A stretch of 64,000 nucleotides of DNA from an uncultured Helicobacter sp. (GCA_964568395.1 CAZMPN010000001.1:129133-193132), one strand, 5' to 3'. Numbered from the stretch's first letter, positions 15,998 through 35,535 are shown. The notes: generated by a model from the sequence alone, not told the origin. Program-made: numbers and translations.

Positions 15998-16074
15998 GTG
16001 CCCGTAGCTCAGCTGGATAGAGTTTCAGATTGCGATTCTGAAGGTCACAGGTTCGAATCCTGTCGGGCACGCCA
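15998..16074 (+). tRNA. tRNA-Arg (anticodon GCG as read)
   Basis: A 77-nt cloverleaf: GTGCCCG TA GCTC AGCTGGATA GAGT T TCAGA TTGCGAT TCTGA AGGTC ACAGG TTCGAAT CCTGT CGGGCAC G CCA. The D-arm is as in E. coli tRNA-Arg(ACG), but position 34 is G. Confidence 0.85.
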
Positions 16075-21372: not shown

Positions 21373-22643
21373 ACTACGAAAACCTCCTAAAAAACAGACG
21401 GATAGGGCTGGCAGTCACGGCGTCGGTGTCGATATATAAGGCTTTGGAGCTAGCGCGCCTATACGTCAAGGCCGGCGCTGACGTGCGGGTCGTGATGAGC
21501 GAGGAGGCTAAGAAGTTTATCTCCCCTATAATGTTTGAAAGCTTGAGCTCTCATATCGTGCTTCACGAAGGTACCGAGAGCTGGGCCGGCGAGGTGGAAG
21601 GCGGCGTGAACAACCATATAGGGCTGGCCAAATGGGCTGAGGTGTTCGTCGTGGCTCCGGCTAGCGCAAATACGATAGCCAAGCTGGCAAACGCCATAGC
21701 GGACAACCTGATGCTGCAGACGCTTCTAGCGAGCACGGCTCCAAAGGTGCTGGCTCCCGCGGCGAATACTAATATGATAGAACACCCGATTACGAAGGCG
21801 AACATCAAGATGCTGACCCTTTGCGGCTACGAGCTGGTCGAGAGCGTAAGCAAACTGCTAGCGTGCGGCGACGAGGGCAAAGGCGGGCTTGCCGAGGTGG
21901 AGGATATATTCCTTGCAACCGCCAGAGCGCTCTTAAAAGATGAGTTTTGGGAGCATAGGAATGCTCTCGTTACCGGCGGTGGTACGCTGGAGCGTATAGA
22001 CGACGTGAGATATATCGGCAACTTCTCAAGCGGAAAGATGGCGGACGCTCTAGCCGTGGCGCTTTATGTGCGGGGCGCCGACGTGAGGCTGCTCTCATCG
22101 AAAAGCTCCCTAAACTCAAACCTCATAAAAACCATACCTTTTGAGAGCGGAGAGCAGCTGCACGCCAAAATATCGGCGTTGATGGACGGGGCAAAGTCAC
22201 CTAAAAGTACGAAGCCGAGCCTGCTAACAAACGAGCCGGTACAGCCTATAAGCAAAGAGCCGTATCTGTTTATGGCTGCGGCGGTAGGCGATTTTGCCCC
22301 GAAAGAGAAGATTTCCGGCAAACTCAAAAAAGACGGGCTGGAAAATCTGGCTCTAGATCTCATAAAAACGACCGATATAATAGGTACGTTGCCAAAAGAG
22401 GGCATAAAAACGGTGGCCTTCAAGGCGGAGAGGGACGCCGATAATGCGGTAAACTCCGCAAAAGCAGCCTTGGAAACAAAGGGCGTGGATGCGGTATGCC
22501 TAAACGTGCTTGGCGGGGGCGTGGATTTTGGCAGCGACGAGAACGAGGTGACCGTCTTTGACAGAAACGGCGAAAGCAAGATAGAGAAGGCTGGCAAGCT
22601 GATTGTCGCCTTGCAGATATTGGAGTGCGCAAAAAGGTTATGA
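21369..22643 (+). CDS. coaBC: bifunctional phosphopantothenoylcysteine decarboxylase / synthetase
   Basis: 424 aa with an N-terminal flavoprotein domain (VAPASANTIAKLANAIADN) and a C-terminal synthetase domain (RYIGNFSSGKMA). Confidence 0.92.
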   Translation: MNYENLLKNRRIGLAVTASVSIYKALELARLYVKAGADVRVVMSEEAKKFISPIMFESLSSHIVLHEGTESWAGEVEGGVNNHIGLAKWAEVFVVAPASANTIAKLANAIADNLMLQTLLASTAPKVLAPAANTNMIEHPITKANIKMLTLCGYELVESVSKLLACGDEGKGGLAEVEDIFLATARALLKDEFWEHRNALVTGGGTLERIDDVRYIGNFSSGKMADALAVALYVRGADVRLLSSKSSLNSNLIKTIPFESGEQLHAKISALMDGAKSPKSTKPSLLTNEPVQPISKEPYLFMAAAVGDFAPKEKISGKLKKDGLENLALDLIKTTDIIGTLPKEGIKTVAFKAERDADNAVNSAKAALETKGVDAVCLNVLGGGVDFGSDENEVTVFDRNGESKIEKAGKLIVALQILECAKRL

Positions 22644-24346
22644 TAGAAGGACTAAAAGGGGCGGTCGTACTTAAAGAGCTGGCCGCCCTTGCCCAAAACC
22701 TTGAAAAAAAGCTATCCCTCCCCGTTACGATAGAGGTGGTGCAAAAACTGCTCGATACTAAAGACGGATATAAATATCTGGCGAACGTAGACGGCAAACT
22801 TGTGGAGGCCATGTCGAAAAAGGAGCTGGAAGCCGGTATCAAATACTGGGCCGACGCCGTCAAAAACCAGACTACGAATACGCTGGCGCTAGAAAATCTG
22901 GCCAAAAAACCGCAAATACTGCAAAACGAAGTTTTCAAATCCGAAACCCTCTCAAAAGCCCTCGGCTTTGAAAAACTCGTAGAAGTGGTAAAGAGCGAGG
23001 TCGTGTCCATAGTCAGGCAGGATGCGAAGACCGCGGATACCCAAAAACCGCTTGAGCAAAAAGCGGCGACGCCTGAGCAAAAACCGACCCCGCCGCAAAC
23101 ACAGAGCGTTCCGGCCAGACTCGCCGCAGCCGATACGGAGCTTGCGAAAACGAGGCCGGAAGATATAAAAGCGCCCCAAAAAGAGGCCGCTATGCAACCC
23201 TCCGCGCCAAAAGAGGCGAAAGGCGAGATTAGGCAAACGCCGCAAACCGCACCCATTACCGCGCAGAGCGCACAAAAACAGGAGGCGGCTCCGCAGATAA
23301 TCGCCAGCCTAAAAGAGAACGTGCTAAAAGAGCTAAAAGCGGTCATACAGGAGGCCGTCAAGGCGCAAGCCCAAGCCTGGCAGCCGGAAAAAAGCGAAAA
23401 GCCGACGCAACCGCAGCAGCCGCAAAAAACGGAAATCCCAAAAAGTGAAGCGCCGCAAACACCTAGAGCGCAGACCAAAGAGGATATAAAAGAGAGGCTA
23501 AAGGATTTTAAAAGCCTGGTAGACAGCCCATCGGCTCCGACAAAACAGGAGATGGAAAAGGCCAAAATATCCAAAGAGGAGATGCGCGCGGCCAAGATGG
23601 AGCTTGCCTCGGAGAGTATAAAAAACGACGTTGCGGCAAAAATAGAGCAGGCGCTTTTGCAAAACTTCGAAACGCTGCCGAAAAACGCGATAGAAGAAGC
23701 GGCCCAAAAGCTGGCGGACGTGATATTCGGGAAGGCGCCCGGCAGCGATGCCGATGAGAGGATGCTGAAGATATTGGAGCACCTCGAAAAACAGCTGGAG
23801 CAAAAAGCCGCGAAAGAGGGCGGCAAAAAAAACATAGCGGGCGCGGAACTAAGAGCCGAAGAGAACGATACAAAAACAAAAGAGGCGCAAGCCGAGGGTA
23901 GTGGCGCGGAAAAAACAGAGTCAAAAACGGAAAATCCGGCCTCCAAGCTAAAGGCGCAGCTTCTGGAGGAGCTCGCAAAGGTAAGCACGAAAAGCGATTT
24001 TTCCATCCTCTCCAACGTCGCGATGGCGCTAAATAAAGAGGTTTTTACGTTTGTTTTAAAGGACAAAGGTGTTTTGCAGTTTAAAAAGAAACGGCAAAAA
24101 GAGTTAAACGCCAAAACGGTAGAATTCTATAGCGCATTCGAGACTTTGGGGCCCGTCAGCGGAGAGATTAGCCACATTGGCGGCGAAACCGCCCTTAGTC
24201 TAAACGTAGAGTTTGAAAGTACATACCGCTTTTTAAAAGAAAACCTGAAAGAACTCTCCTTTTTTGATAAAAAAAACGTATCCATAATGCACGGCATAAA
24301 AGAGCTAGCCGAGATAAAAAGCTCGTTTTTGGATACTACGGGATAA
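22640..24346 (+). CDS. Lys/Glu/Ala/Pro/Gln-rich low-complexity protein, possibly FliK-like (hook-length control) at the C-terminus
   Basis: I placed the start at the ATG at 22640, giving an ATGA overlap with the coaBC stop. The long central PQ/KE/A-rich region lacks TM segments. The last approx 110 aa (LGPVSGEISHIGGETALSLNVEFESTYRFLKENLKEL) loosely fit the FliK C-terminal pattern. The functional call is tentative. Confidence 0.4.
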   Translation: MIEGLKGAVVLKELAALAQNLEKKLSLPVTIEVVQKLLDTKDGYKYLANVDGKLVEAMSKKELEAGIKYWADAVKNQTTNTLALENLAKKPQILQNEVFKSETLSKALGFEKLVEVVKSEVVSIVRQDAKTADTQKPLEQKAATPEQKPTPPQTQSVPARLAAADTELAKTRPEDIKAPQKEAAMQPSAPKEAKGEIRQTPQTAPITAQSAQKQEAAPQIIASLKENVLKELKAVIQEAVKAQAQAWQPEKSEKPTQPQQPQKTEIPKSEAPQTPRAQTKEDIKERLKDFKSLVDSPSAPTKQEMEKAKISKEEMRAAKMELASESIKNDVAAKIEQALLQNFETLPKNAIEEAAQKLADVIFGKAPGSDADERMLKILEHLEKQLEQKAAKEGGKKNIAGAELRAEENDTKTKEAQAEGSGAEKTESKTENPASKLKAQLLEELAKVSTKSDFSILSNVAMALNKEVFTFVLKDKGVLQFKKKRQKELNAKTVEFYSAFETLGPVSGEISHIGGETALSLNVEFESTYRFLKENLKELSFFDKKNVSIMHGIKELAEIKSSFLDTTG

Positions 24347-24352
24347 TTTAAT

Positions 24353-25738
24353 TTGAATATCGATTTGAGTGTTAGGCAAAAGGCGTTTTTGGTAGGCGCC
24401 GTTTTTGCCCTCTTTTGCGCTTTATACAACGCAATGCTTCCCATATATACGGACGAGGCGTACTACTATCTGTGGAGCAAACACCTGGCTCTCGGATACC
24501 TCGACCATCCGCCGCTTATCGCCTATATGATCAAGCTTTTTACGCTTTTTGGCGATAGTGTCTGGCAGATAAGGCTCGTAGACGTATTCTGTTTTTCGCT
24601 GGCTTCCTACTATGTTTTCAGGAGCGCCGAATATCTGTTTGACGAGAATACGGCTTTTTATTCGTTTCTGATTTTTCTGTTTTCGCCCGCGGTCACTATG
24701 GGGTTTACGATAACGACGCCGGATTCGCCGCTTATACTGTTTTGGTCGGCTTCGTTCTATTACGCTTCAAAAGCGTTTTTTGAGGAGAGGACGGCCGATT
24801 TTATCTTAGCCGGGCTGCTTGGCGGATTGGCGCTTTTGTCTAAATATACCGGGGTGTTGCTATTTTTTAGCTACTTTTTGTTCGTCGCGGCCAAAAAACC
24901 GAAACTATTCTTGTCGTATAAGCTTTATCTGGCGCTTATGTTCGCGCTTCTGGCATTCTCGCCCGTGATAGCGTGGAACGCCTCGAACTCCTTTGAGAGT
25001 TTCGCTTTTCAGTATAATCACGGAAGCAAAACCGAGAGCGAGCCTCTAAACATACTTCTTAACGTAGAGTTTATAGGCGGTATGTTCGCGGTGTTCGGCC
25101 CCGTGTTTTTCGTGGTTCTGGCGTGGGCTTTCACCAAAAAAGAGAGTTATAGAAACGATAGGCTGTTTTTTGCGGTGTTGCCGGCTTTGTTTACGATACT
25201 TTTTTTCCTATATAAAGGGCTTTACAAAAAGATGGAGCTAAACTGGGTCGCCCCGGCTTTCGTCTCCGCCTCTCTAGTCGTCGGATATATGATTCGCTCT
25301 AAGGGGCTGAAAAAGACTTTTTACGCAGGGCTTGCGCTATCCATCCTGATAGTTTTTGCGGCTAGGTTTCCGCTATTTCTTGGGCTCGCAAACGCAAAGA
25401 ATCCGCACGAGAGGCTTTTTGGTTACGAGGAGCTTGCAAAGGAGCTTAAAAGGCTTGGGGACGGCGACGTATTCGCAGACCATCTGACTAGCGCGTCGGT
25501 GTTGACGTACCATCTAAAAAAGGATGTATTCATACCTACAAGCACCAGAAAAAGCGAATTCGACAGATGGCAAAAAGATGTCAATTTCAGCAGCCGCTCC
25601 GGGTTTTACGTCTCAAAAGACGAGAGGCTTTCTGAGCTTAAAACGATATGGAAAAACGCGGCTCTCTTGGAGGAGTTCAAAGCCAAGAAAGAGGGCTTTA
25701 GGGAAAAAACTTTTTATATTTATAGGGTTTCAAATTGA
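24353..25738 (+). CDS. GT-C glycosyltransferase, family 39 (ArnT/PMT-like), paralogue 1
   Basis: 461 aa with a TTG start. It is polytopic and carries the first-loop motif YTDEAYYYLWSKHLALGYLDHPPL, plus LSKYTG and a soluble C-terminal approx 100 aa. Confidence 0.8.
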   Translation: MNIDLSVRQKAFLVGAVFALFCALYNAMLPIYTDEAYYYLWSKHLALGYLDHPPLIAYMIKLFTLFGDSVWQIRLVDVFCFSLASYYVFRSAEYLFDENTAFYSFLIFLFSPAVTMGFTITTPDSPLILFWSASFYYASKAFFEERTADFILAGLLGGLALLSKYTGVLLFFSYFLFVAAKKPKLFLSYKLYLALMFALLAFSPVIAWNASNSFESFAFQYNHGSKTESEPLNILLNVEFIGGMFAVFGPVFFVVLAWAFTKKESYRNDRLFFAVLPALFTILFFLYKGLYKKMELNWVAPAFVSASLVVGYMIRSKGLKKTFYAGLALSILIVFAARFPLFLGLANAKNPHERLFGYEELAKELKRLGDGDVFADHLTSASVLTYHLKKDVFIPTSTRKSEFDRWQKDVNFSSRSGFYVSKDERLSELKTIWKNAALLEEFKAKKEGFREKTFYIYRVSN

Positions 25739-26667
25739 AGAGGATTTTAAAAAACGAGCTGTTAAAGACCGGGGTGAAGATAGCTTTTGCTCTCTTCGCA
25801 TTTTGGTTTTTATCCAAAAAGCTGGATTATTCGCAGCTACCGGAACTGTTTTATTCGATGAACTATTATCTGCTGCTTTTGGCGCTCATTTTGCAGTTTG
25901 CGTCTATAGCCATCGCGGCGCTTAGATGGCAGCTGGTTATGCGCTCTCTAGGGTTTGGCGGCAACTTCGGGTTTTACCAAAATCTATACTTCAAAGGCTT
26001 CTTCTTCTCGCAGGCGTTGCCCGGAAGCGTTGGCGGGGACGCGATAAGGCTGCTTGCCCTAAAGGACGAAGGGTATAAGGTCGGAGATTCTCTTTACGGC
26101 ATATTCATAGACAGGGTCGTAGGGCTTACCGGGCTTCTTCTTATCAGCCTTTTCGCCCTTTTGTTCGCTCCCGCTTACCTTACCGACGCCATCAAATATA
26201 CGGTCTTTATGATAAGTTTTGGCGGAATCGTCGGCTTTGTGGGACTACTTTTTGTCCACAAACTATTCGATTTTGGCAAAATGCCGAAGCTTAGAATAGT
26301 GGGCGAGCTGTCAAGGCGGTTTTTTAGGGTGTACGAGAACGCCAAGAAAGCAAATTTGCAGCTGGCGCTCTCGGTAGTCATACACTTTTTGTCCATTCTT
26401 TGCGTCTACTCCATATCGGCGGCGGCGGGGCTTGGCGTAGAGTTTGGCGCGTTCTTGTGCTTGATGCCTCTGGTCATACTCTTGACGATACTTCCTATCT
26501 CGTTTGCCGGATGGGGCGTCAGAGAGGGCGCGATGGTGGGGCTTTTTGCTATGAGCGGAGCCGGCAAAGAGGCTATAATGGCGGTTTCGATAGCGTACGG
26601 CGTGATATTGATAGCTTCGTCTATCCCTGGGTTTTTCGCCTGGATAAAATCAAAAAATATAGCGTAA
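25735..26667 (+). CDS. flippase-like membrane protein (UPF0104 / lysyl-PG synthase TM-domain family)
   Basis: 310 aa with approx 8 TM helices. It has AALRWQLVM...LPGSVGGDAIRLL, typical of this family. There is a 4-nt overlap with the upstream GT39. Confidence 0.72.
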   Translation: MKRILKNELLKTGVKIAFALFAFWFLSKKLDYSQLPELFYSMNYYLLLLALILQFASIAIAALRWQLVMRSLGFGGNFGFYQNLYFKGFFFSQALPGSVGGDAIRLLALKDEGYKVGDSLYGIFIDRVVGLTGLLLISLFALLFAPAYLTDAIKYTVFMISFGGIVGFVGLLFVHKLFDFGKMPKLRIVGELSRRFFRVYENAKKANLQLALSVVIHFLSILCVYSISAAAGLGVEFGAFLCLMPLVILLTILPISFAGWGVREGAMVGLFAMSGAGKEAIMAVSIAYGVILIASSIPGFFAWIKSKNIA

Positions 26668-26677
26668 GGGTAAATTT

Positions 26678-27871
26678 ATGAACGTAGATATGATGCGAAA
26701 AATAGACTACTGGGCCGGCGTGCCGCTCTGCTTTTTATCGACATATCTGCTAAAGCCCCTGCATGCGCTATGCACGCCTAAAAAACCGAAAAACGTCCTG
26801 CTCATAGAGCTTAGCGAGATGGGCAGCACGATACTTTGCGATCCTATGATGCAGCGTCTCAAAAGTAACGGCTGCGAGCTATTTTTCGTAATTTTCAAAA
26901 AAAACGAGCCGAGCCTCAGGCTGCTTAACACCGTATCAAAAGAGAATACTTTTACGATTAGAGAGGATTCGCTTTTTACGCTTGCCGCCGACGTGCTTAG
27001 ATTTTTGGTCTGGTGCAGACAAAAAAAGATAGATTCGGTCATCGACCTAGAGCTATTTTCCCGTGTAACGGCGCTTCTTACCGGATTTAGCGGTGCCGTA
27101 AACCGTGTCGGATATCACGCGTTTCATAACGAAGGGCTCTACCGCGGCGATATGCTCACGCACAAAGTCGCCTACAACCCGCATATGCACATAGCCAAAA
27201 ACTTTATATCTCTTTCAAATGCGCTTTTAAGTGACGCGAAGGAGACGCCGTACTCCAAAAAAGCCGTAACGGACGAGGAGATAAGACTCAAAAAAGCCGA
27301 GATTTCTGACGAAGCAAAACAGGGCGTGATAGCCAAAATAAAAGCCGCGATGCCTATTTTTGACGGTTCTCAGGATATAGTCATATTCAACGCGAACGCC
27401 TCGGACCTCATGCCGCTAAGACGATGGCCCAGGGAGTACTATATAGAGCTTGGGCGCAAATTGCTTGAGAGCTATCCGAACATCATCATACTCCTTACCG
27501 GTGCGCCTAGCGAGCGAGAAGGGCTCGACGTGATACGCCAAAATCTAGGGGATAGATGCGTCAACTTCGCCGGAAGTACGACATTTGCGGAGCTAGCTCC
27601 CCTATACGCCGTTAGCCGCCTGATGCTTACAAACGATAGCGGCCCGGCGCACTTCGCGGCCGTCACCGAGCTGCCTACGTTCGTATTTTTCGGGCCTGAG
27701 ACGCCGGCGCTTTATGGAAGTCTCGGCAACTTCACGCCAATATATGCGCATCTTGCATGTTCGCCTTGCGTCTCAGCGGCAAACCACCGCAAAAGCGCCT
27801 GCGACGACAATCAATGCGTGAAGGTGATTTCGCCCCAGTTCGTTTTCGACGTTCTTAAAAAAGCGTTGTAA
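26678..27871 (+). CDS. glycosyltransferase family 9 (heptosyltransferase-like)
   Basis: 397 aa with LRRWP, TGAPSEREG and the GT9 signature NDSGPAHFAA. Confidence 0.8.
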   Translation: MNVDMMRKIDYWAGVPLCFLSTYLLKPLHALCTPKKPKNVLLIELSEMGSTILCDPMMQRLKSNGCELFFVIFKKNEPSLRLLNTVSKENTFTIREDSLFTLAADVLRFLVWCRQKKIDSVIDLELFSRVTALLTGFSGAVNRVGYHAFHNEGLYRGDMLTHKVAYNPHMHIAKNFISLSNALLSDAKETPYSKKAVTDEEIRLKKAEISDEAKQGVIAKIKAAMPIFDGSQDIVIFNANASDLMPLRRWPREYYIELGRKLLESYPNIIILLTGAPSEREGLDVIRQNLGDRCVNFAGSTTFAELAPLYAVSRLMLTNDSGPAHFAAVTELPTFVFFGPETPALYGSLGNFTPIYAHLACSPCVSAANHRKSACDDNQCVKVISPQFVFDVLKKAL

Positions 27872-27891
27872 TTTTAAATTAGGAAAAAAAT

Positions 27892-28209
27892 ATGAAAAAA
27901 ACCATTTTAGTTTTAACGGCGTTCGCGCTGTCCCTCTTTGCCGATAACTTCACTACGCCCGCCGCACAAAAGGCGCCTGCCGAGCCGGTAGTAAACGCTC
28001 AACCGGCTCCAAAAGAGAGCATGGTGGCCGCCGATGCGAAAGCCCAGACCGTAAAAGAGCCTAAGGTCATAGCAAAAACGCACAAAAAATCAAAAAAAAC
28101 AGCCAAGACGGCAGGCAAAAAAACCAAAAAACACGTCGTGAAAGCAAAGCACGGCAAAAAAATAGCCGCCAAAAAACACGCGAAAAAAGCAAAACACAAA
28201 AAAGCGTAA
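27892..28209 (+). CDS. secreted protein with polycationic Lys/His/Ala-rich C-terminal tail
   Basis: 105 aa with an AGGAAA RBS and signal peptide MKKTILVLTAFALSLFA. The tail is KTHKKSKKTAKTAGKKTKKHVVKAKHGKKIAAKKHAKKAKHKKA. Confidence 0.6.
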   Translation: MKKTILVLTAFALSLFADNFTTPAAQKAPAEPVVNAQPAPKESMVAADAKAQTVKEPKVIAKTHKKSKKTAKTAGKKTKKHVVKAKHGKKIAAKKHAKKAKHKKA

Positions 28210-28219
28210 TAGGGTCTAG

Positions 28220-29617
28220 ATGTTTAAAAAGCCGATATTCGCCCTTATCGTTTCGCTAACGATTCTTAGGCTTATAACGGCGCCATTTTTCGGATACGGG
28301 GTGGACGAGGCCCACTATGTGCTATACGCCAGACATCTCGCCCTTAGCTATTTCGACCATCCGCCTCTTGTTGGCTGGGTGCACTATCTATTTTCTTTTT
28401 TGGGTGCCGGCGAGTTTTGGGCTAGAGTGCCGGCGATACTGCTCGGTGCGGCCGACAGCTATCTTGTCTACCTGCTGCTAAAAGAGAGGGGTGAGAAGGC
28501 TGCCCTTTGGGCGGTAGCCGCATTTAACGCCTCGTTGGTTATCGGCGTCCTATTGCTGACGCTAATGCCGGACTCCCTATTGATAACGCTAATGCTGTTG
28601 CTGATATTTGCCGTAAAAAGGCTGGAAGATTCGAAAACACTTACAAATTATCTGCTTTTAGGCTTGGTGTTCGGCCTTTTGGGGCTTAGCAAATATACGG
28701 CTATTTTGTTCGTCGCCGGATTTGCCGTCTATGTCATTTGGGCGAGACGGCTTGATATAGCGTTTAACGCCGGAGTAATCCCGGCTTTTTTGGTGTCGCT
28801 CCTTTTTGTCTCCCCGGTAATACTATGGAATCTAGACAACAACTTCGCAAGTTTCGCATACCAGGCTTCGCACGTAGGGGGAGGAGACGGAGGAAGCCTC
28901 AAAAACTTTTTTACTTCTCTAGGCAGGCAGTTTGGCGCGTACAATCCGGCGCTTTTTATCATGGCTTTTTACGGGCTTTACGAGGCTTTCAAAAAAGGCG
29001 AGCATAAACTTGAAATATCCATCACGCTTCCGGTGCTTTTGTTTATGCTGGCCTCGCAGTATAGGCAAGTCGCCCTGCCGCACTGGATAAGTCCGTTTTT
29101 CGCCATTTTTGTTCCGATAGGCGCTTCGTATCTATACCTGGCAAGAGAGAAGCTTGCAAGGTGGATTGTCGGCGCAAGTCTGGCTATTGCCCTAATCGTT
29201 CATGCGGAGCTTATTTTCAAAGTAGGAAAATTTGCGGATTATAAGTCGCCTTTTAGGGATATAGCCGGGTGGAGCGAGGCTTGCGACGAGGCCTCAAAGA
29301 GGCTGGAAGGGATAGATGGCGCGAATAAAGCCTTAGCCGTCACGAATTGGACGGTCGCCAGCAGGGCCATAGTCTATTCCAAAGCTCCGGTCTATCTGAT
29401 AGATGATAGAAAAGACCAGTTCGATATCTGGGAGGGCGACTCGCCGATCGGCAAAGACCTCTTGTTTATAAACCCTAAGACGTTTCATAAGGATATCAAT
29501 GCGAGCTTTGTTTGCGGCGAATACGAGAACGTCGGTTCGTATGAGGCGAGAATAGGGGGCGCCATTGTGGATACCTTCGATTTTGAGCTGTGCAGAGATT
29601 TTGGGGGTATTAGATGA
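28220..29617 (+). CDS. GT-C glycosyltransferase, family 39 (ArnT/PMT-like), paralogue 2
   Basis: 465 aa and polytopic. It carries GVDEAHYVLYARHLALSYFDHPPL, LSKYTA and WNLDNNFASFAYQ, which parallel paralogue 1 (WNASNSFESFAFQ). Confidence 0.8.
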   Translation: MFKKPIFALIVSLTILRLITAPFFGYGVDEAHYVLYARHLALSYFDHPPLVGWVHYLFSFLGAGEFWARVPAILLGAADSYLVYLLLKERGEKAALWAVAAFNASLVIGVLLLTLMPDSLLITLMLLLIFAVKRLEDSKTLTNYLLLGLVFGLLGLSKYTAILFVAGFAVYVIWARRLDIAFNAGVIPAFLVSLLFVSPVILWNLDNNFASFAYQASHVGGGDGGSLKNFFTSLGRQFGAYNPALFIMAFYGLYEAFKKGEHKLEISITLPVLLFMLASQYRQVALPHWISPFFAIFVPIGASYLYLAREKLARWIVGASLAIALIVHAELIFKVGKFADYKSPFRDIAGWSEACDEASKRLEGIDGANKALAVTNWTVASRAIVYSKAPVYLIDDRKDQFDIWEGDSPIGKDLLFINPKTFHKDINASFVCGEYENVGSYEARIGGAIVDTFDFELCRDFGGIR

Positions 29618-30216
29618 AGCTTTTTTGGTCCGTTTTTTCGTTTATAGCCGTCGCCTTTTTTTGCGTCTTTAGCTACCACTCTTTGGATATGGCCGTCGCG
29701 GAGTATTTTTATACAAACAGGCCCTTGGAGCAGTTTTTCGAGACGGTGACGAGATTTGGCGAATCAAAATGGTATCTTCTGGGATTTGGCGGTTTGGCTA
29801 TCGTTTTTAGGTATATTTTTCGCCTAAAAAGCGTCTCAAATCGTTTTTTGTATCTATTTTTGGCCGTCGCCGGAAGCGGGCTAATCGTAGATATACTAAA
29901 ATTTGTTTTTGGAAGAGCCAGGCCTAAGCTATATTTTGAACAGCAGATATACGGTATAAAATTTTTCGGCGGCGAATATCTATACTATTCGTTTCCGTCC
30001 GGGCACTGCGCCACAGTTTCATCGCTCGGCGTCGGGGCTTTGCTGTTTTTTGGCAAAAAATCGTTGCCTATTTTGGTTTTCTGCGCGCTCGTGGTGCTCA
30101 GTCGTATAGCGATAACGGCGCACTATCTATCGGATATAGTGGCGGGGGTGTATGTCGGGGTATTGTTTTCGGTTTGGCTGGCGCATAAGATGAGAGAAAA
30201 AGGTATAAATTTTTGA
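29614..30216 (+). CDS. PAP2-family membrane phosphatase (LpxE/LpxF/PgpB-like)
   Basis: 200 aa with all three PAP2 motifs: KFVFGRARP, PSGH and SRIAITAHYLSD. There are 4-nt overlaps on both sides. Confidence 0.85.
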   Translation: MKLFWSVFSFIAVAFFCVFSYHSLDMAVAEYFYTNRPLEQFFETVTRFGESKWYLLGFGGLAIVFRYIFRLKSVSNRFLYLFLAVAGSGLIVDILKFVFGRARPKLYFEQQIYGIKFFGGEYLYYSFPSGHCATVSSLGVGALLFFGKKSLPILVFCALVVLSRIAITAHYLSDIVAGVYVGVLFSVWLAHKMREKGINF

Positions 30217-30890
30217 AAACGCCAAGGCATATAGCGATTATTATGGACGGTAACGGCAGATGGGCCAAGGAGCGGGGCAAGGCGAGAAGCAAAGGCCACG
30301 AAGAGGGCGCCAAAAACGTAAGAGCGATAACCGAATCGGCCATAAAAGCCGGAGTGAAATACCTTACGTTATATGCTTTCAGCACCGAGAACTGGGCTAG
30401 ACCGAAGACGGAAGTGGAATTTTTGATGAAGCTGCTGGAGCGCTATCTTGACAAGGAAGCTGAGAGCTACAGAAAAAACGGTATAAGATTCGAGGTAATA
30501 GGCGACATCTCTAGGTTTTCGGATTCACTCGTAAAAAAGATAGAGTCCATCAGGGTCGAGACCGCGAAAAACAAGAAGCTGACGCAGGTGCTTGCTATAA
30601 ACTACGGCGCCAAAGACGAGATAGTGCGAGCGGTAAAAAAAATGCAAAGCTCATCTTTGGAGATAGACGAACAAAATCTGAGCGCGTCTTTGGATACGGC
30701 GTTTATGCCCGACGTAGATATGCTTGTCCGTACCGGCGGAGATATGAGGCTCTCAAACTTCATGTTGTGGCAGTCGGCGTATGCGGAGCTGTTTTTTACA
30801 AAAACGCTCTGGCCTGATTTCGGCGAGGAAGAGCTGTTTTCGATGATCGAAGAGTTTAAAACAAGAGAGAGGAGGTTTGGAAAAGTATGA
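30213..30890 (+). CDS. uppS: undecaprenyl-diphosphate synthase (di-trans,poly-cis)
   Basis: 225 aa with a TTG start, plus HIAIIMDGNGRWA, LYAFSTENW and VRTGGDMRLSNFMLWQ. Confidence 0.95.
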   Translation: MKTPRHIAIIMDGNGRWAKERGKARSKGHEEGAKNVRAITESAIKAGVKYLTLYAFSTENWARPKTEVEFLMKLLERYLDKEAESYRKNGIRFEVIGDISRFSDSLVKKIESIRVETAKNKKLTQVLAINYGAKDEIVRAVKKMQSSSLEIDEQNLSASLDTAFMPDVDMLVRTGGDMRLSNFMLWQSAYAELFFTKTLWPDFGEEELFSMIEEFKTRERRFGKV

Positions 30891-32701: not shown

Positions 32702-33463
32702 TTGAGAGTGCTAGCTATAGTCTCCTATGACGGCAGCCGGTTTTACGGCTCCCAGATACAAAATAGCGGGCGCTCTACGATTATGGGCGAGTTTGCAAAA
32801 GCCCTTTCGTCGGTCGGCATCTTTGCCGCGCCGATAGCTTCCGGGCGCACAGATACCGGGGTGCACGCCTTGCGTCAACCTATAGCGTTCGACCTTCCGC
32901 CTTTTTGGGAAGAGCAGGTCGGAAACGGCGCCTCATCCTTCTTGCTCTCGCACCTAAACCGTAAACTCTCCCCATATATACGAATAAACAAGCTATATAA
33001 AGTATGCGACGATTTCAATCCGAGATTTGACGCGCTTAGGCGTTCGTATAGGTATATCGTCGCTACGAAGCCGTCCGTGTTTTGTTCGGACTATGCCGCT
33101 TTTGTTCCTCATATCGACGAGGAAGCCGTGCAAGAAGCGATAGGTGCGTTCGAGGGCGTGCACGATTTTAGGTTTTTCAAAAAAAACGGAAGCGAAACGG
33201 AAAACGACATAAGGGAGATATATAAAGCCCGCTTCTACAAAAAAAACGGCCTATATGTGTTTAATTTCGAGGCCAACGGATTTTTAAGAAGCCAGATACG
33301 TCTTAGCGTCGGTTTTTTGCTTGCGCTATCCGAGGGTAGACATACCAAAGAGGAGCTTTTGGAGCAGTTGGACGCCAAAAAAAGACACTTCAGCAAGCCA
33401 GCACCGCCAAATGGGCTATATCTGAGTCGCGTCGCGTACGGTAAGCCTTTTTTGCCTCTATAG
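32702..33463 (+). CDS. truA: tRNA pseudouridine(38-40) synthase
   Basis: 253 aa with a TTG start, plus SYDGSRFYGSQ and the catalytic GRTDTGVHA. Confidence 0.92.
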   Translation: MRVLAIVSYDGSRFYGSQIQNSGRSTIMGEFAKALSSVGIFAAPIASGRTDTGVHALRQPIAFDLPPFWEEQVGNGASSFLLSHLNRKLSPYIRINKLYKVCDDFNPRFDALRRSYRYIVATKPSVFCSDYAAFVPHIDEEAVQEAIGAFEGVHDFRFFKKNGSETENDIREIYKARFYKKNGLYVFNFEANGFLRSQIRLSVGFLLALSEGRHTKEELLEQLDAKKRHFSKPAPPNGLYLSRVAYGKPFLPL

Positions 33464-33820
33464 TACAAATTCCCCCATCAATACCGCACTCCATATCAAA
33501 AACGCAAACACTACCGACACCAAAACCACGGCCGCCGCGGCATCCTTGGCCTTTTTCGCCCTTTCGTCGAATTCCAAGGTTACGAGGTCTACGGTGCGTT
33601 CTATCGCGCTGTTGATCATCTCGGCTATAATGATTGGAAACATGGAGAAAAACAGCAGCGCCTTCGAGACGGTGGATATGTCGAGAAGCGCTATAAGGGC
33701 TGTGGCGCCTATGAACAAAGCGATCTCTATCTGCAGCGCCGTTTCGTTTTTTAGCACCTCCAAAAATCCGTCTATTCCGTGGCTCGTATTTTTGATGATA
33801 TTAAATCTTTTTCGCCTCAT
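33458..33820 (-). CDS. dgkA: diacylglycerol kinase (small integral membrane DgkA family)
   Basis: 120 aa with three TM helices and the conserved EMINSAIE motif. Confidence 0.85.
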   Translation of the reverse strand: MRRKRFNIIKNTSHGIDGFLEVLKNETALQIEIALFIGATALIALLDISTVSKALLFFSMFPIIIAEMINSAIERTVDLVTLEFDERAKKAKDAAAAVVLVSVVFAFLIWSAVLMGEFVL

Positions 33821-34761: not shown

Positions 34762-34770
34762 GGGGTCTTG

Positions 34771-35535
34771 ATGGGTATATTTGAAGCGATAATGCTAGGA
34801 ATCGTAGAGGGGCTCACGGAGTTTCTCCCGATATCGTCGACGGGGCACCTGATACTGGCGTCCAAGCTGCTAGGCATAGAGCAGACCGACATACATAAAA
34901 GCTTTGAGGTCGTGATACAGATGGGGTCTATTCTGGCTGTCATAGTCATATATTTCGAGAAGCTGATAAAAAATCTCAACCTGGCAAAAAAACTGGCCGT
35001 CGCCTTCCTGCCGACCGGGATACTGGGATTTTTGCTATATAAGCATATAAAGGCGCTTTTTGCTCCGGAAACGGTGGCGTTTATGCTGATAGCCGGGGGT
35101 ATATTTTTCATAGCGTTGGAATTTTTCTACAAGGAAAAAGAGCACCATGTGCACAAAGTGGAGGAGATAAGCTACAAACAGGCGCTTCTCATAGGGTTTG
35201 CCCAGTCTTTCGCGATGGTGCCCGGTACGAGCCGTTCGGGGGCCACGATAATAGGCGGGCTTCTGGCCGGTCTAAACAGAAGATGCGCCGTCGAGTTCTC
35301 GTTTTTGCTCGCCGTCCCTACGATGATCATAGCCTCCGCCTACGATATGCTAAAAAACTTTTCGCACTTTGACGGAAGCGATAGCGCCAATTTGGCCGCA
35401 GGTTTTGTCGCCGCTTTTATCGTCGGGATGATAGCCATAAAGTGGTTTTTGAGGTTCGTCTCAAAATTTAGTTTCGTGCCGTTTGGTATATACAGGATTG
35501 TGCTCGGCGTACTGTTTTTATATATTCTTTTTTGA
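34771..35535 (+). CDS. uppP: undecaprenyl-diphosphate phosphatase
   Basis: I placed the start at the ATG at 34771, after an AAGGGG RBS. It has GLTEFLPISSTGH and PGTSRSGATI motifs. Confidence 0.93.
   Translation: MGIFEAIMLGIVEGLTEFLPISSTGHLILASKLLGIEQTDIHKSFEVVIQMGSILAVIVIYFEKLIKNLNLAKKLAVAFLPTGILGFLLYKHIKALFAPETVAFMLIAGGIFFIALEFFYKEKEHHVHKVEEISYKQALLIGFAQSFAMVPGTSRSGATIIGGLLAGLNRRCAVEFSFLLAVPTMIIASAYDMLKNFSHFDGSDSANLAAGFVAAFIVGMIAIKWFLRFVSKFSFVPFGIYRIVLGVLFLYILF

Follow-up and report, generated by a model that had tools for sequence, protein, structure and literature searches.

Within a 64,000-nt stretch of DNA from an uncultured Helicobacter sp. (GCA_964568395.1 CAZMPN010000001.1:129133-193132; hereafter the window, meaning the whole stretch), a module of six genes occupies positions 24353-30216 on the + strand (Table 1). 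It encodes two membrane glycosyltransferases (GTs) of the GT-C type, a flippase-like protein of the UPF0104/PplT family, a GT of family 9 (GT9), a small Lys/His-rich protein and a PAP2 lipid phosphatase. Four of these, PplT, GT9, one GT-C and PAP2, recur as a cassette in several bacterial lineages. An earlier interpretation made without database searches, the sequence-only reading, had described the six genes as a candidate undescribed envelope-lipid glycosylation system upstream of uppS. The six open reading frames (ORFs) lie at the positions it gave, and the operon-like packing that it noted is borne out by the 4-nt overlaps at 25735-25738, 29614-29617 and 30213-30216, the last with uppS, and by gaps of 10-20 nt in the rest of the module. 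The motifs that it quoted are all present, namely DEAYYYLW...LDHPPL in GT-C 1, LPGSVGGDAIRLL in PplT, NDSGPAHFAA in GT9, DEAHYVLY...FDHPPL in GT-C 2 and KX6RP, PSGH and SRX5HX3D in PAP2. Profile hidden Markov model (HMM) searches, which it had proposed as a check, support by Pfam both GT-C assignments and those of UPF0104/PplT, GT9 and PAP2.

Table 1. Coordinates of the module, of uppS and of further features in the window and in related loci (L numbers denote loci in other genomes).
Feature	Position	Strand	Description
GT-C 1	24353-25738	+	461 aa; PMT_2/ArnT-like membrane glycosyltransferase
PplT / UPF0104	25735-26667	+	310 aa; core member
GT9	26678-27871	+	397 aa; atypical, soluble, GT-B fold; most conserved core member
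Lys/His-rich protein	27892-28209	+	105 aa; small, secreted-type, no family; in variable slot
GT-C 2	28220-29617	+	465 aa; ArnT-like membrane glycosyltransferase of the core
PAP2 lipid phosphatase	29614-30216	+	200 aa; core member
uppS (undecaprenyl-diphosphate synthase)	30213-30890	+	225 aa; context gene
PAP2-PplT fusion	L016:4961-6730, L034:8231-9985, L065:8173-9987		both domains Pfam-confirmed in L016 and L065
Second cassette, Gallionellaceae	L014:8188-14257, L046:12260-18337		follows the PplT-GT9 pair; closed by a second PplT
Second cassette, Sulfurimonas	L071:1813-8584		upstream of the PplT-GT9 pair; without a second PplT
GT9-GT-C 2 interval	27872-28219		variable slot
Same slot in close relatives	L001:11239-12454, L003:2804-4297
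Enlarged front end	L001:3722-8994		GT9 86% identical
GT9 with distant PplT paralogue, Nitrospirota	L029:10001-18039, L036:10001-16547, L078:9944-18060
Metallophosphoesterase	L083:12086-13393; 12 Sulfurimonas loci, e.g. L080:13302-14612		430 aa
573-aa protein	22625-24346		internal repeats at 23043-23901
dgkA	33458-33820	-
bacA/uppP	34768-35535

One genome per species was scanned with the GT9 alignment, and at least 559 loci (species-level genomes) were found to carry this GT9 subfamily. The best 80 loci have GT9 at 58-91% identity. ORFs were predicted in every locus and compared with the proteins of the window and with HMMs that were made for each family from the matches. The closest GT9 matches (80-91% identity) came from Campylobacterales and Sulfuricurvum metagenome-assembled genomes, by which the host of the window is placed as a Sulfuricurvum-like member of the Sulfurimonadaceae (Campylobacterales) and not as a Campylobacter. 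The best 80 comprised Sulfuricurvum, Sulfurimonas, Gallionellaceae/Nitrosomonadales, Nitrospirota, Smithella/Syntrophaceae and Chromatiales/Thiohalomonadaceae/Ectothiorhodospiraceae/Acidiferrobacterales. Partners, defined as genes within 4 kb of GT9, were counted in the 52 loci whose sequence reached 4 kb or more to either side of GT9. PplT, GT-C and PAP2 were all present in 32 of the 52 loci, PplT and GT-C in 8, PplT only in 3, GT-C and PAP2 in 2, GT-C only in 1 and no partner in 6, so that PAP2 lay within 4 kb in 34 of the 52. Three of the six partnerless loci were from Smithella/Syntrophaceae, with GT9 beside lptF/lptG, and two were gammaproteobacterial, with the partners 5-8 kb away. In 50 of 74 loci PplT directly preceded GT9 on the same strand, and in 38 of 75 a GT-C directly followed it.

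The conserved unit is PplT-GT9-GT-C-PAP2, which recurs in Sulfurimonas, Sulfuricurvum, Gamma- and Betaproteobacteria and Nitrospirota, the last without a detected PAP2. The proposal that all six genes form a functional unit did not hold, the conserved core being confined to these four. GT-C 1 is an optional extra member seen in Campylobacterota; its orthologue stands upstream of PplT in many, not all, Sulfurimonas loci, including S. gotlandica GD1. The gene order is (GT-C 1)-PplT-GT9-GT-C 2-PAP2 in Campylobacterota, GT-C-PAP2-PplT-GT9 in Gammaproteobacteria and GT9-GT-C-PplT in Nitrospirota. The cassette lies between the gene for a 573-aa protein and uppS in the window and in its closest relatives L001, L003 and L005; downstream of lptF in L004, where coaBC-uppS-A24-lptF are contiguous; after metH in other Sulfuricurvum (L002, L009, L012); and between motAB/fliP and glmU in Sulfurimonas, where it reads PMT_2-PplT-GT9-PMT-PAP2 in the cultured S. 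gotlandica GD1. The overlap of PAP2 with uppS is confined to the lineage of the window, and elsewhere the module is not adjacent to uppS. An accessory insertion, as the sequence-only reading had it, agrees with this varying position among relatives, but the cassette is not rare, being widespread across several phylum- or class-level lineages. Its statement that GC content is not deviant stands (0.476 in the module, 0.470 in the window), and GC at third codon positions is also normal. Neither direct nor inverted repeats of note flank the module, and no tRNA or Rfam element lies near it, the nearest tRNA being at 15998; a recent foreign insertion or mobile element was rejected on these grounds. 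A promoter and terminator scan gave counts no higher than in shuffled sequence, which neither supports nor refutes a single transcript.

A Pfam census of 135 flanking proteins from 19 loci outside Campylobacterota yielded no GT2, no ADP-heptose gene and no other recurrent partner; with flanks this heterogeneous, the cassette looks self-contained. Elsewhere in the 64-kb window no GT2 and no further GT9, PAP2 or PplT was found. A GT2 occurs at the locus only in L001 and is not DPMS/ArnC-like by NCBIfam. It belongs to an enlarged front end that occupies the position of the single GT-C in the window and consists of a PMT, a 46-aa ORF, the GT2, a 459-aa protein that matches no family and has a single membrane segment at its N-terminus, and a 550-aa PMT_2 on the reverse strand. 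The three Nitrospirota loci of Table 1 have, after GT9, a distant paralogue of PplT that is about 20% identical to the other PplT proteins; L029 and L078 also carry a GT-C between the two. Two aminotransferases, one of the DegT family and one of class I/II, come after this PplT, in L029 and L036 behind a radical-SAM protein, and they hint at an amino-sugar in that lineage.

The contents of the slot between GT9 and GT-C 2 vary. It is empty in L005, whereas a 186-aa protein and a Phd/ParE pair fill it in L001, and L003 has a 285-aa protein and a toxin-antitoxin-like pair there. Its occupant in the window is the gene for the Lys/His-rich protein, which has a signal-peptide-like N-terminus, 28 K/R residues, no Pfam family and a plausible ribosome-binding site (AGGA, 7 nt upstream of the ATG). 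The sequence-only reading had counted this gene as part of the module. It is missing from the closest relatives L003, L005 and L001, is absent from all 82 related loci and falls into a 90% cluster of 2 members. These results and the varying contents of the slot led us to reject the protein as a conserved component or substrate; the gene is strain-specific cargo outside the system.

Both GT-Cs are PMT_2/ArnT-like, within the GT39/GT83 superfamily of CAZy, and are 22% identical to each other. Against a cutoff of 26.1 bits, the Pfam PMT_2 model (PF13231) matched GT-C 1 at 1.3e-33 (116.9 bits) and GT-C 2 at 1.7e-21 (77.5 bits); GT-C 1, with DE and DHPP motifs and about 9 hydrophobic segments, also matched Pfam PMT (6.8e-09). 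The AlphaFold2 (AF2) model of GT-C 2 (pLDDT 91.6) shows about 16 helices and behind them, at 351-459, an alpha/beta domain, and residues D29, E30, D46, H47, P48 and P49 are invariant. Its best Foldseek match was ArnT of Cupriavidus metallidurans with undecaprenyl phosphate (5F15, E 4e-7, TMq 0.66), the ArnT entries 5F15/5EZM ranking first, followed by PglB, STT3, ALG9, EmbC and Pmt4. A true ArnT orthologue was rejected: HMMER searches of GT-C 2 against solved GT-C structures, including ArnT, found no similarity with either the single sequence or the profile, neither GT-C had an NCBIfam ArnT match, and no arn genes occur in the module of the window.

PplT matched Pfam LPG_synthase_TM (4.1e-42, 145.1 bits, cutoff 33.4) and NCBIfam TIGR00374 (73.4 bits, cutoff 43.2) and has about 8 hydrophobic segments. 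It corresponds to a stand-alone MprF-type flippase domain with no aminoacyl-phosphatidylglycerol synthase (bifunc_MprF 27 bits, cutoff 600). PAP2 matched its Pfam model at 1.6e-24 (86.6 bits, cutoff 27.2) with the catalytic motifs present as KFVFGRARP, PSGH and SRIAITAHYLSD, and it remained far under the cutoff of every specific NCBIfam phosphatase model, among them SepP (28.9 of 250 bits), LpxE (21.5 of 177), PgpB (20.4 of 261) and YbjG (16.4 of 229). Sequence searches of PAP2 and PplT against solved structures gave no match. Three Thiohalomonadaceae genomes encode the two proteins as one ORF of 584-604 aa, with PAP2 at the N-terminal and PplT at the C-terminal end, a fusion that links the phosphatase to whatever the flippase handles; the fused form scored 43.1 bits with SepP, 38.5 with YbjG and 31.6 with PgpB. 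In Sulfurimonas loci a purple-acid-phosphatase-like metallophosphoesterase with an N-terminal hydrophobic segment is encoded directly after PAP2 and before glmU, a gene absent from the window.

A second cassette stands beside the PplT-GT9 pair in Gallionellaceae and, in part, in Sulfurimonas L071 and L038 (Table 1). It encodes a GT-C, DprE1 (435 bits), a DprE2-like reductase, a HAD-IB phosphatase and a decaprenyl-phosphate phosphoribosyltransferase (292 bits, above cutoff). From these matches it looks like a donor pathway for a polyprenyl-phosphate-pentose of the arabinofuranose type in Gram-negative iron/sulfur oxidisers, with PplT as the sole candidate flippase, which suggests that the flippase family has been recruited to polyprenyl-phosphate-sugar/GT-C systems. 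The extra GT-Cs are accompanied by donor genes of their own (UbiA/DprE; L071, L014, L046), and by analogy GT9 is left as the putative donor enzyme of the core GT-C. We infer from context that PplT translocates a lipid, and what its cargo may be, by analogy with GpgF of Pseudomonas aeruginosa, with the second PplT of this decaprenyl-phosphoryl-arabinose (DPA)-like cassette and with the PAP2 fusion.

GT9 matched Pfam Glyco_transf_9 at 3.4e-22 (79.4 bits, cutoff 22) and scored under all NCBIfam heptosyltransferase equivalog cutoffs, with 74.3 against 134.6 bits for HepII, 36.3 against 170.2 for HepIII and 29.8 against 185.3 for HepI. No transmembrane segment was predicted in it, and its AF2 model (pLDDT 78.6) has a GT-B fold whose top Foldseek matches were 3TOV, a Veillonella GT9 (1e-16), WaaF (1.4e-16) and WaaC (5e-12). 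Chains of the plant chloroplast NDH-PSI supercomplex (9GRX_1, 7F9O_6, 7WFF_a) ranked just behind the bacterial heptosyltransferases. The subfamily has a conserved N-terminal helix (residues 3-30), four invariant cysteines (Cys4 motif) and, at 143-172, a loop rich in His, Tyr and Arg that is likewise conserved and is of low confidence in the model. The cysteines prompted us to consider a TibC/BAHT-like protein heptosyltransferase as the closest relative, which was rejected, as HMMER gave no match and TibC ranked 29th by Foldseek (5e-7).

In HepII, ADP-heptose is bound by K195, D269, S270, G271 and H274, and Asp13 is the catalytic base conserved in HepI, HepII and HepIII (10.1101/2022.06.13.495986). 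The five binding residues align with R248, D320, S321, G322 and H325 of GT9, which are invariant in 78 sequences, and E279 also belongs to the conserved ADP-heptose site. The donor site is canonical and the acceptor site is not: in the loop S46-E-M-G-S50, Ser50, likewise invariant in the 78 sequences and flanked by the invariant acidic residues E44, E47 and D55, likely takes the position of Asp13. This register was taken from the 3TOV alignment (GDVILTTP / GSTILxDP), the G-x7-P spacing and the position after beta-strand 1/alpha1 in the model. An hhalign comparison of the GT9 profile with a sequence of E. coli WaaF that agrees with the PDB alignments aligned residues 113-397 only, with the N-terminus outside. 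A Ser in place of the catalytic Asp would fit an acceptor from which no proton has to be removed, for example a phosphate.

GT9 is invariant at 98 of 397 positions. Its identity between lineages is flat at 56-61%, Sulfurimonas compared with Sulfuricurvum included, and reaches 66% for Gamma- compared with Betaproteobacteria. Its partners diverge normally, with about 40-48% identity for PplT (orthologous groups), 30-45% for GT-C and 27-38% for PAP2. We read the flat identity of GT9 as a sign of strong constraint rather than recent transfer.

We propose, with a probability of roughly 40%, that the cassette decorates an envelope lipid from the periplasmic face, with GT9 loading heptose onto a carrier, PplT flipping it, GT-C transferring it to lipid A or core and PAP2 acting in dephosphorylation. 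At the cytoplasmic face, GT9 would transfer heptose from ADP-heptose to the (pyro)phosphate of a carrier lipid, either undecaprenyl phosphate or the UppS product undecaprenyl diphosphate, and not to a sugar hydroxyl. PplT would then move the lipid-linked sugar to the outer leaflet, where one or both ArnT-like GT-Cs would place it on an acceptor, most likely lipid A or the inner core of the lipopolysaccharide (LPS). PAP2 would either strip a lipid A phosphate that is replaced by the sugar, as LpxE/LpxF do, or recycle the freed carrier diphosphate; in the diphosphate sub-variant the UppS product would be used directly and recycled by PAP2. Such loading of a carrier (pyro)phosphate would explain the missing base, the tight link to a flippase and the lack of a GT2. 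The sequence-only reading had already put GT9 in the slot of the donor synthase, an assignment that is now better motivated but unproven. In its most specific form, with the GT9 subfamily as a polyprenyl-(pyro)phosphate heptosyltransferase, PplT as its dedicated flippase and an ArnT-like GT-C adding the heptose outside the cytoplasm to lipid A, core or another envelope acceptor, the proposal is a tentative one.

Several points weigh against carrier loading by GT9. To our knowledge no GT9 or other GT-B enzyme glycosylates polyprenyl phosphate, the characterised donor synthases being GT2s, and the characterised lipid-directed GT9 enzymes that we know of all act on Kdo or heptose of LPS at the cytoplasmic side. 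Ser50 was matched to Asp13 through a weak local HMM match and not a residue-level superposition, and the role of the base could fall to E47 or D55 instead. The host genomes could carry a GT2 donor synthase at another place. In Smithella/Syntrophaceae, where GT9 lies beside lptF/lptG, none of PplT, GT-C and PAP2 occurs within 10 kb of it, which fits a direct role in LPS. The diphosphate sub-variant is further weakened by the fact that ArnT/PMT-type GT-Cs use monophosphate donors, not diphosphate.

The main alternative, to which we give rather less than even odds and somewhat less than to our proposal, is conventional two-sided remodelling of LPS. GT9 would then be a divergent cytoplasmic inner-core heptosyltransferase that makes or completes the acceptor, an unlinked GT2 would make an undecaprenyl-phosphate-sugar for PplT to flip, PAP2 would be an LpxE/LpxF-like lipid A phosphatase, and lipid A or core would receive the sugar from the GT-C(s), much as happens in Rhizobium (LpxE/LpxF/RgtA-D) or Arn. 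Pairs of PAP2 and GT-C follow the known logic of lipid A dephosphorylation and glycosylation, and the Rhizobium donor synthase, too, is unlinked to its transferases. The precedent of the GT9 family, the intact ADP-heptose site, ArnT as the closest structural match of GT-C and the position of GT9 beside lptF/lptG in three Smithella/Syntrophaceae genomes all agree with this alternative, as does the presence of lptF/G about 1.4 kb downstream in the window. It accounts poorly for the replacement of the catalytic Asp by an invariant Ser, for the scores of GT9 below every HepI/II/III equivalog cutoff and for a flat GT9 identity of about 60% between phyla, far above what is usual for LPS core transferases. 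The tight pairing of PplT with GT9 (50/74 loci) would be unexplained if their substrates were unrelated, and no GT2 recurs near the cassette in any lineage.

The cassette might instead make a free glycolipid or lipoglycan, which we consider improbable. GT9 would glycosylate the head group of an inner-leaflet glycerolipid (cf. GpgS, HexS), PplT would flip the product, and PAP2 and GT-C would trim and extend it outside as in phosphatidylinositol mannosides/lipomannan. Operons of a GT-B transferase and a UPF0104 flippase do make glucosaminyl-phosphatidylglycerol in P. aeruginosa, MprF-type flippases have been shown to move phospholipids, the PAP2-PplT fusion fits a phosphorylated lipid cargo, and the PAP2 family includes phosphatidylglycerophosphate and phosphatidic acid phosphatases. 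Yet GT-C would still require a separate polyprenyl-linked donor and flippase, none being encoded nearby; no heptosylated phospholipid is known, and the cassette has no deacetylase or other head-group enzyme. Periplasmic protein O-glycosylation, with the GT-Cs acting like PMT on secreted proteins such as the Pro/Ala/Thr-containing Lys/His-rich protein, is very unlikely, for although PMT enzymes have similar DE and DHPP motifs, GT-C 1 is matched by Pfam PMT as well, Pmt4 is among the fold matches and a secreted-protein gene lies inside the module, that gene is missing from all related loci, ArnT is a far better fold match than Pmt (E 4e-7 vs 5e-4), the GT-Cs lack the MIR domain of PMT (Pfam: PMT/PMT_2 only) and PAP2 would have no role.

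The tight co-directional packing in the window is longer than the six genes, extending from glmU (20077) to truA (33463). The gene order is trmA(-), fliP(-), glmU, coaBC, the 573-aa protein, the six genes, uppS, a prepilin peptidase, lptF/G and truA, followed by dgkA(-), a Mem_trans protein and bacA. uppS was identified by Pfam Prenyltransf (8.3e-84) and NCBIfam PRK14833 (344.7 bits, cutoff 325). Together with dgkA and bacA/uppP it forms a group of carrier-lipid genes downstream of the module, and bacA/uppP provides the genome with a BacA-type undecaprenyl-diphosphate phosphatase besides the PAP2 of the module. The 573-aa protein, directly upstream, has no Pfam or NCBIfam match; its gene is very A-rich on the coding strand (AT skew 0.56), its K/R and D/E residues are nearly equal in number (92 vs 87) and it contains imperfect internal repeats. 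It is kept in close relatives, and some Sulfurimonas have shorter homologues in the stretch from coaBC to uppS.

The decoration of envelope lipids such as lipid A in the periplasm governs surface charge, resistance to cationic peptides and polymyxin, and recognition by the immune system and by phages. All characterised routes known to us use a GT2 donor synthase, and the cassette encodes none, although several hundred species or more of bacteria that cycle sulfur, iron and nitrogen carry it, among them the cultured S. gotlandica GD1. Should GT9 make the donor, it would represent a new enzyme class in the biosynthesis of lipid-linked sugars and the first GT-B/GT9 donor maker known. PplT would then be the first MprF-type flippase from bacteria with a polyprenyl-linked sugar as its demonstrated cargo, which would give the obscure but widespread UPF0104/PplT family a defined cargo, and the diphosphate sub-variant would open a route for cytoplasmically made polyprenyl diphosphate to a periplasmic PAP2 phosphatase. 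If GT9 is not the donor maker, the cassette still predicts an undescribed lipid A or core structure in Sulfurimonadaceae and relatives.

A literature search, in which subscription journals were thinly covered so that absence is not proven, found no published description of the PplT-GT9-GT-C-PAP2 combination or of the whole gene set, in line with the sequence-only reading. Its remark that the module does not match the known three-component schemes was also correct. In Arn, Gtr, Rgt and CsbB/YfhO a GT2 synthase and a GtrA/ArnEF/Wzx flippase serve the GT-C, whereas the module encodes neither. Arn (PmrHFIJKLM) and the Rhizobium LpxE/LpxF and RgtA-E system resemble it in a GT-C of ArnT fold that acts, in the module by prediction, at the periplasmic face with a lipid-linked sugar, in the dedicated flippase and in the pairing of PAP2 with GT-C. 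The module differs from them in that it has no GT2 donor synthase (ArnC/RgtE) and no ArnA/B/D, has GT9 as a core member and an MprF-type PplT in place of ArnE/F, and its GT-Cs have no HMMER similarity to solved ArnT. With WaaC, WaaF and WaaQ the GT9 of the module shares the Pfam family, the GT-B fold and the ADP-heptose-binding residues, but it differs in the Ser at the Asp13 position, the N-terminal helix of roughly 37 residues, the 143-172 loop, the Cys4 motif, the sub-cutoff scores and the linkage to flippase, GT-C and PAP2 rather than to waa genes.

The DPA pathway (UbiA, the PAP2 protein Rv3807c, DprE1/DprE2 and GT-C) follows a similar logic, in that the lipid-linked sugar is made inside, a lipid phosphatase takes part and the GT-C acts on the outside, and a DPA-like cassette lies directly beside PplT-GT9 in Gallionellaceae, where it has its own PplT, and in some Sulfurimonas. 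The window is without UbiA, DprE1 and DprE2, and its donor enzyme would be the nucleotide-sugar-dependent GT9 and not a UbiA that depends on phosphoribosyl pyrophosphate. UPF0104 proteins among glycosyltransferases, which the sequence-only reading had correctly assigned but taken as a departure from characterised schemes, do have precedents. In P. aeruginosa, GpgSDF makes glucosaminyl-phosphatidylglycerol with a cytoplasmic GT-B enzyme encoded beside a UPF0104/PplT flippase, the proposed exporter of its lipid product (PMC12713373). GpgSDF and HexSDF of Clostridioides difficile share this neighbourhood with the module but have a GT4 and a deacetylase and an end-product glycolipid, whereas here there are GT9, PAP2 and GT-C(s) and presumably a donor. 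In an archaeal neighbourhood, UPF0104 was predicted to be the flippase of a glycosylation pathway and is encoded with a PMT/STT3-like enzyme and an AglD-like GT2 (Makarova et al. 2015, PMC5898192); the pairing of UPF0104 with a GT-C-like enzyme is the same, but the cytoplasmic enzyme there is a GT2, PAP2 is absent and the pathway was proposed to glycosylate S-layer proteins. Systems that combine a lipid-linked sugar with a flippase and a periplasmic GT-C, often with PAP2 as a partner, are already known, and what is new in the cassette is a GT9 without the catalytic Asp together with an MprF-type flippase.

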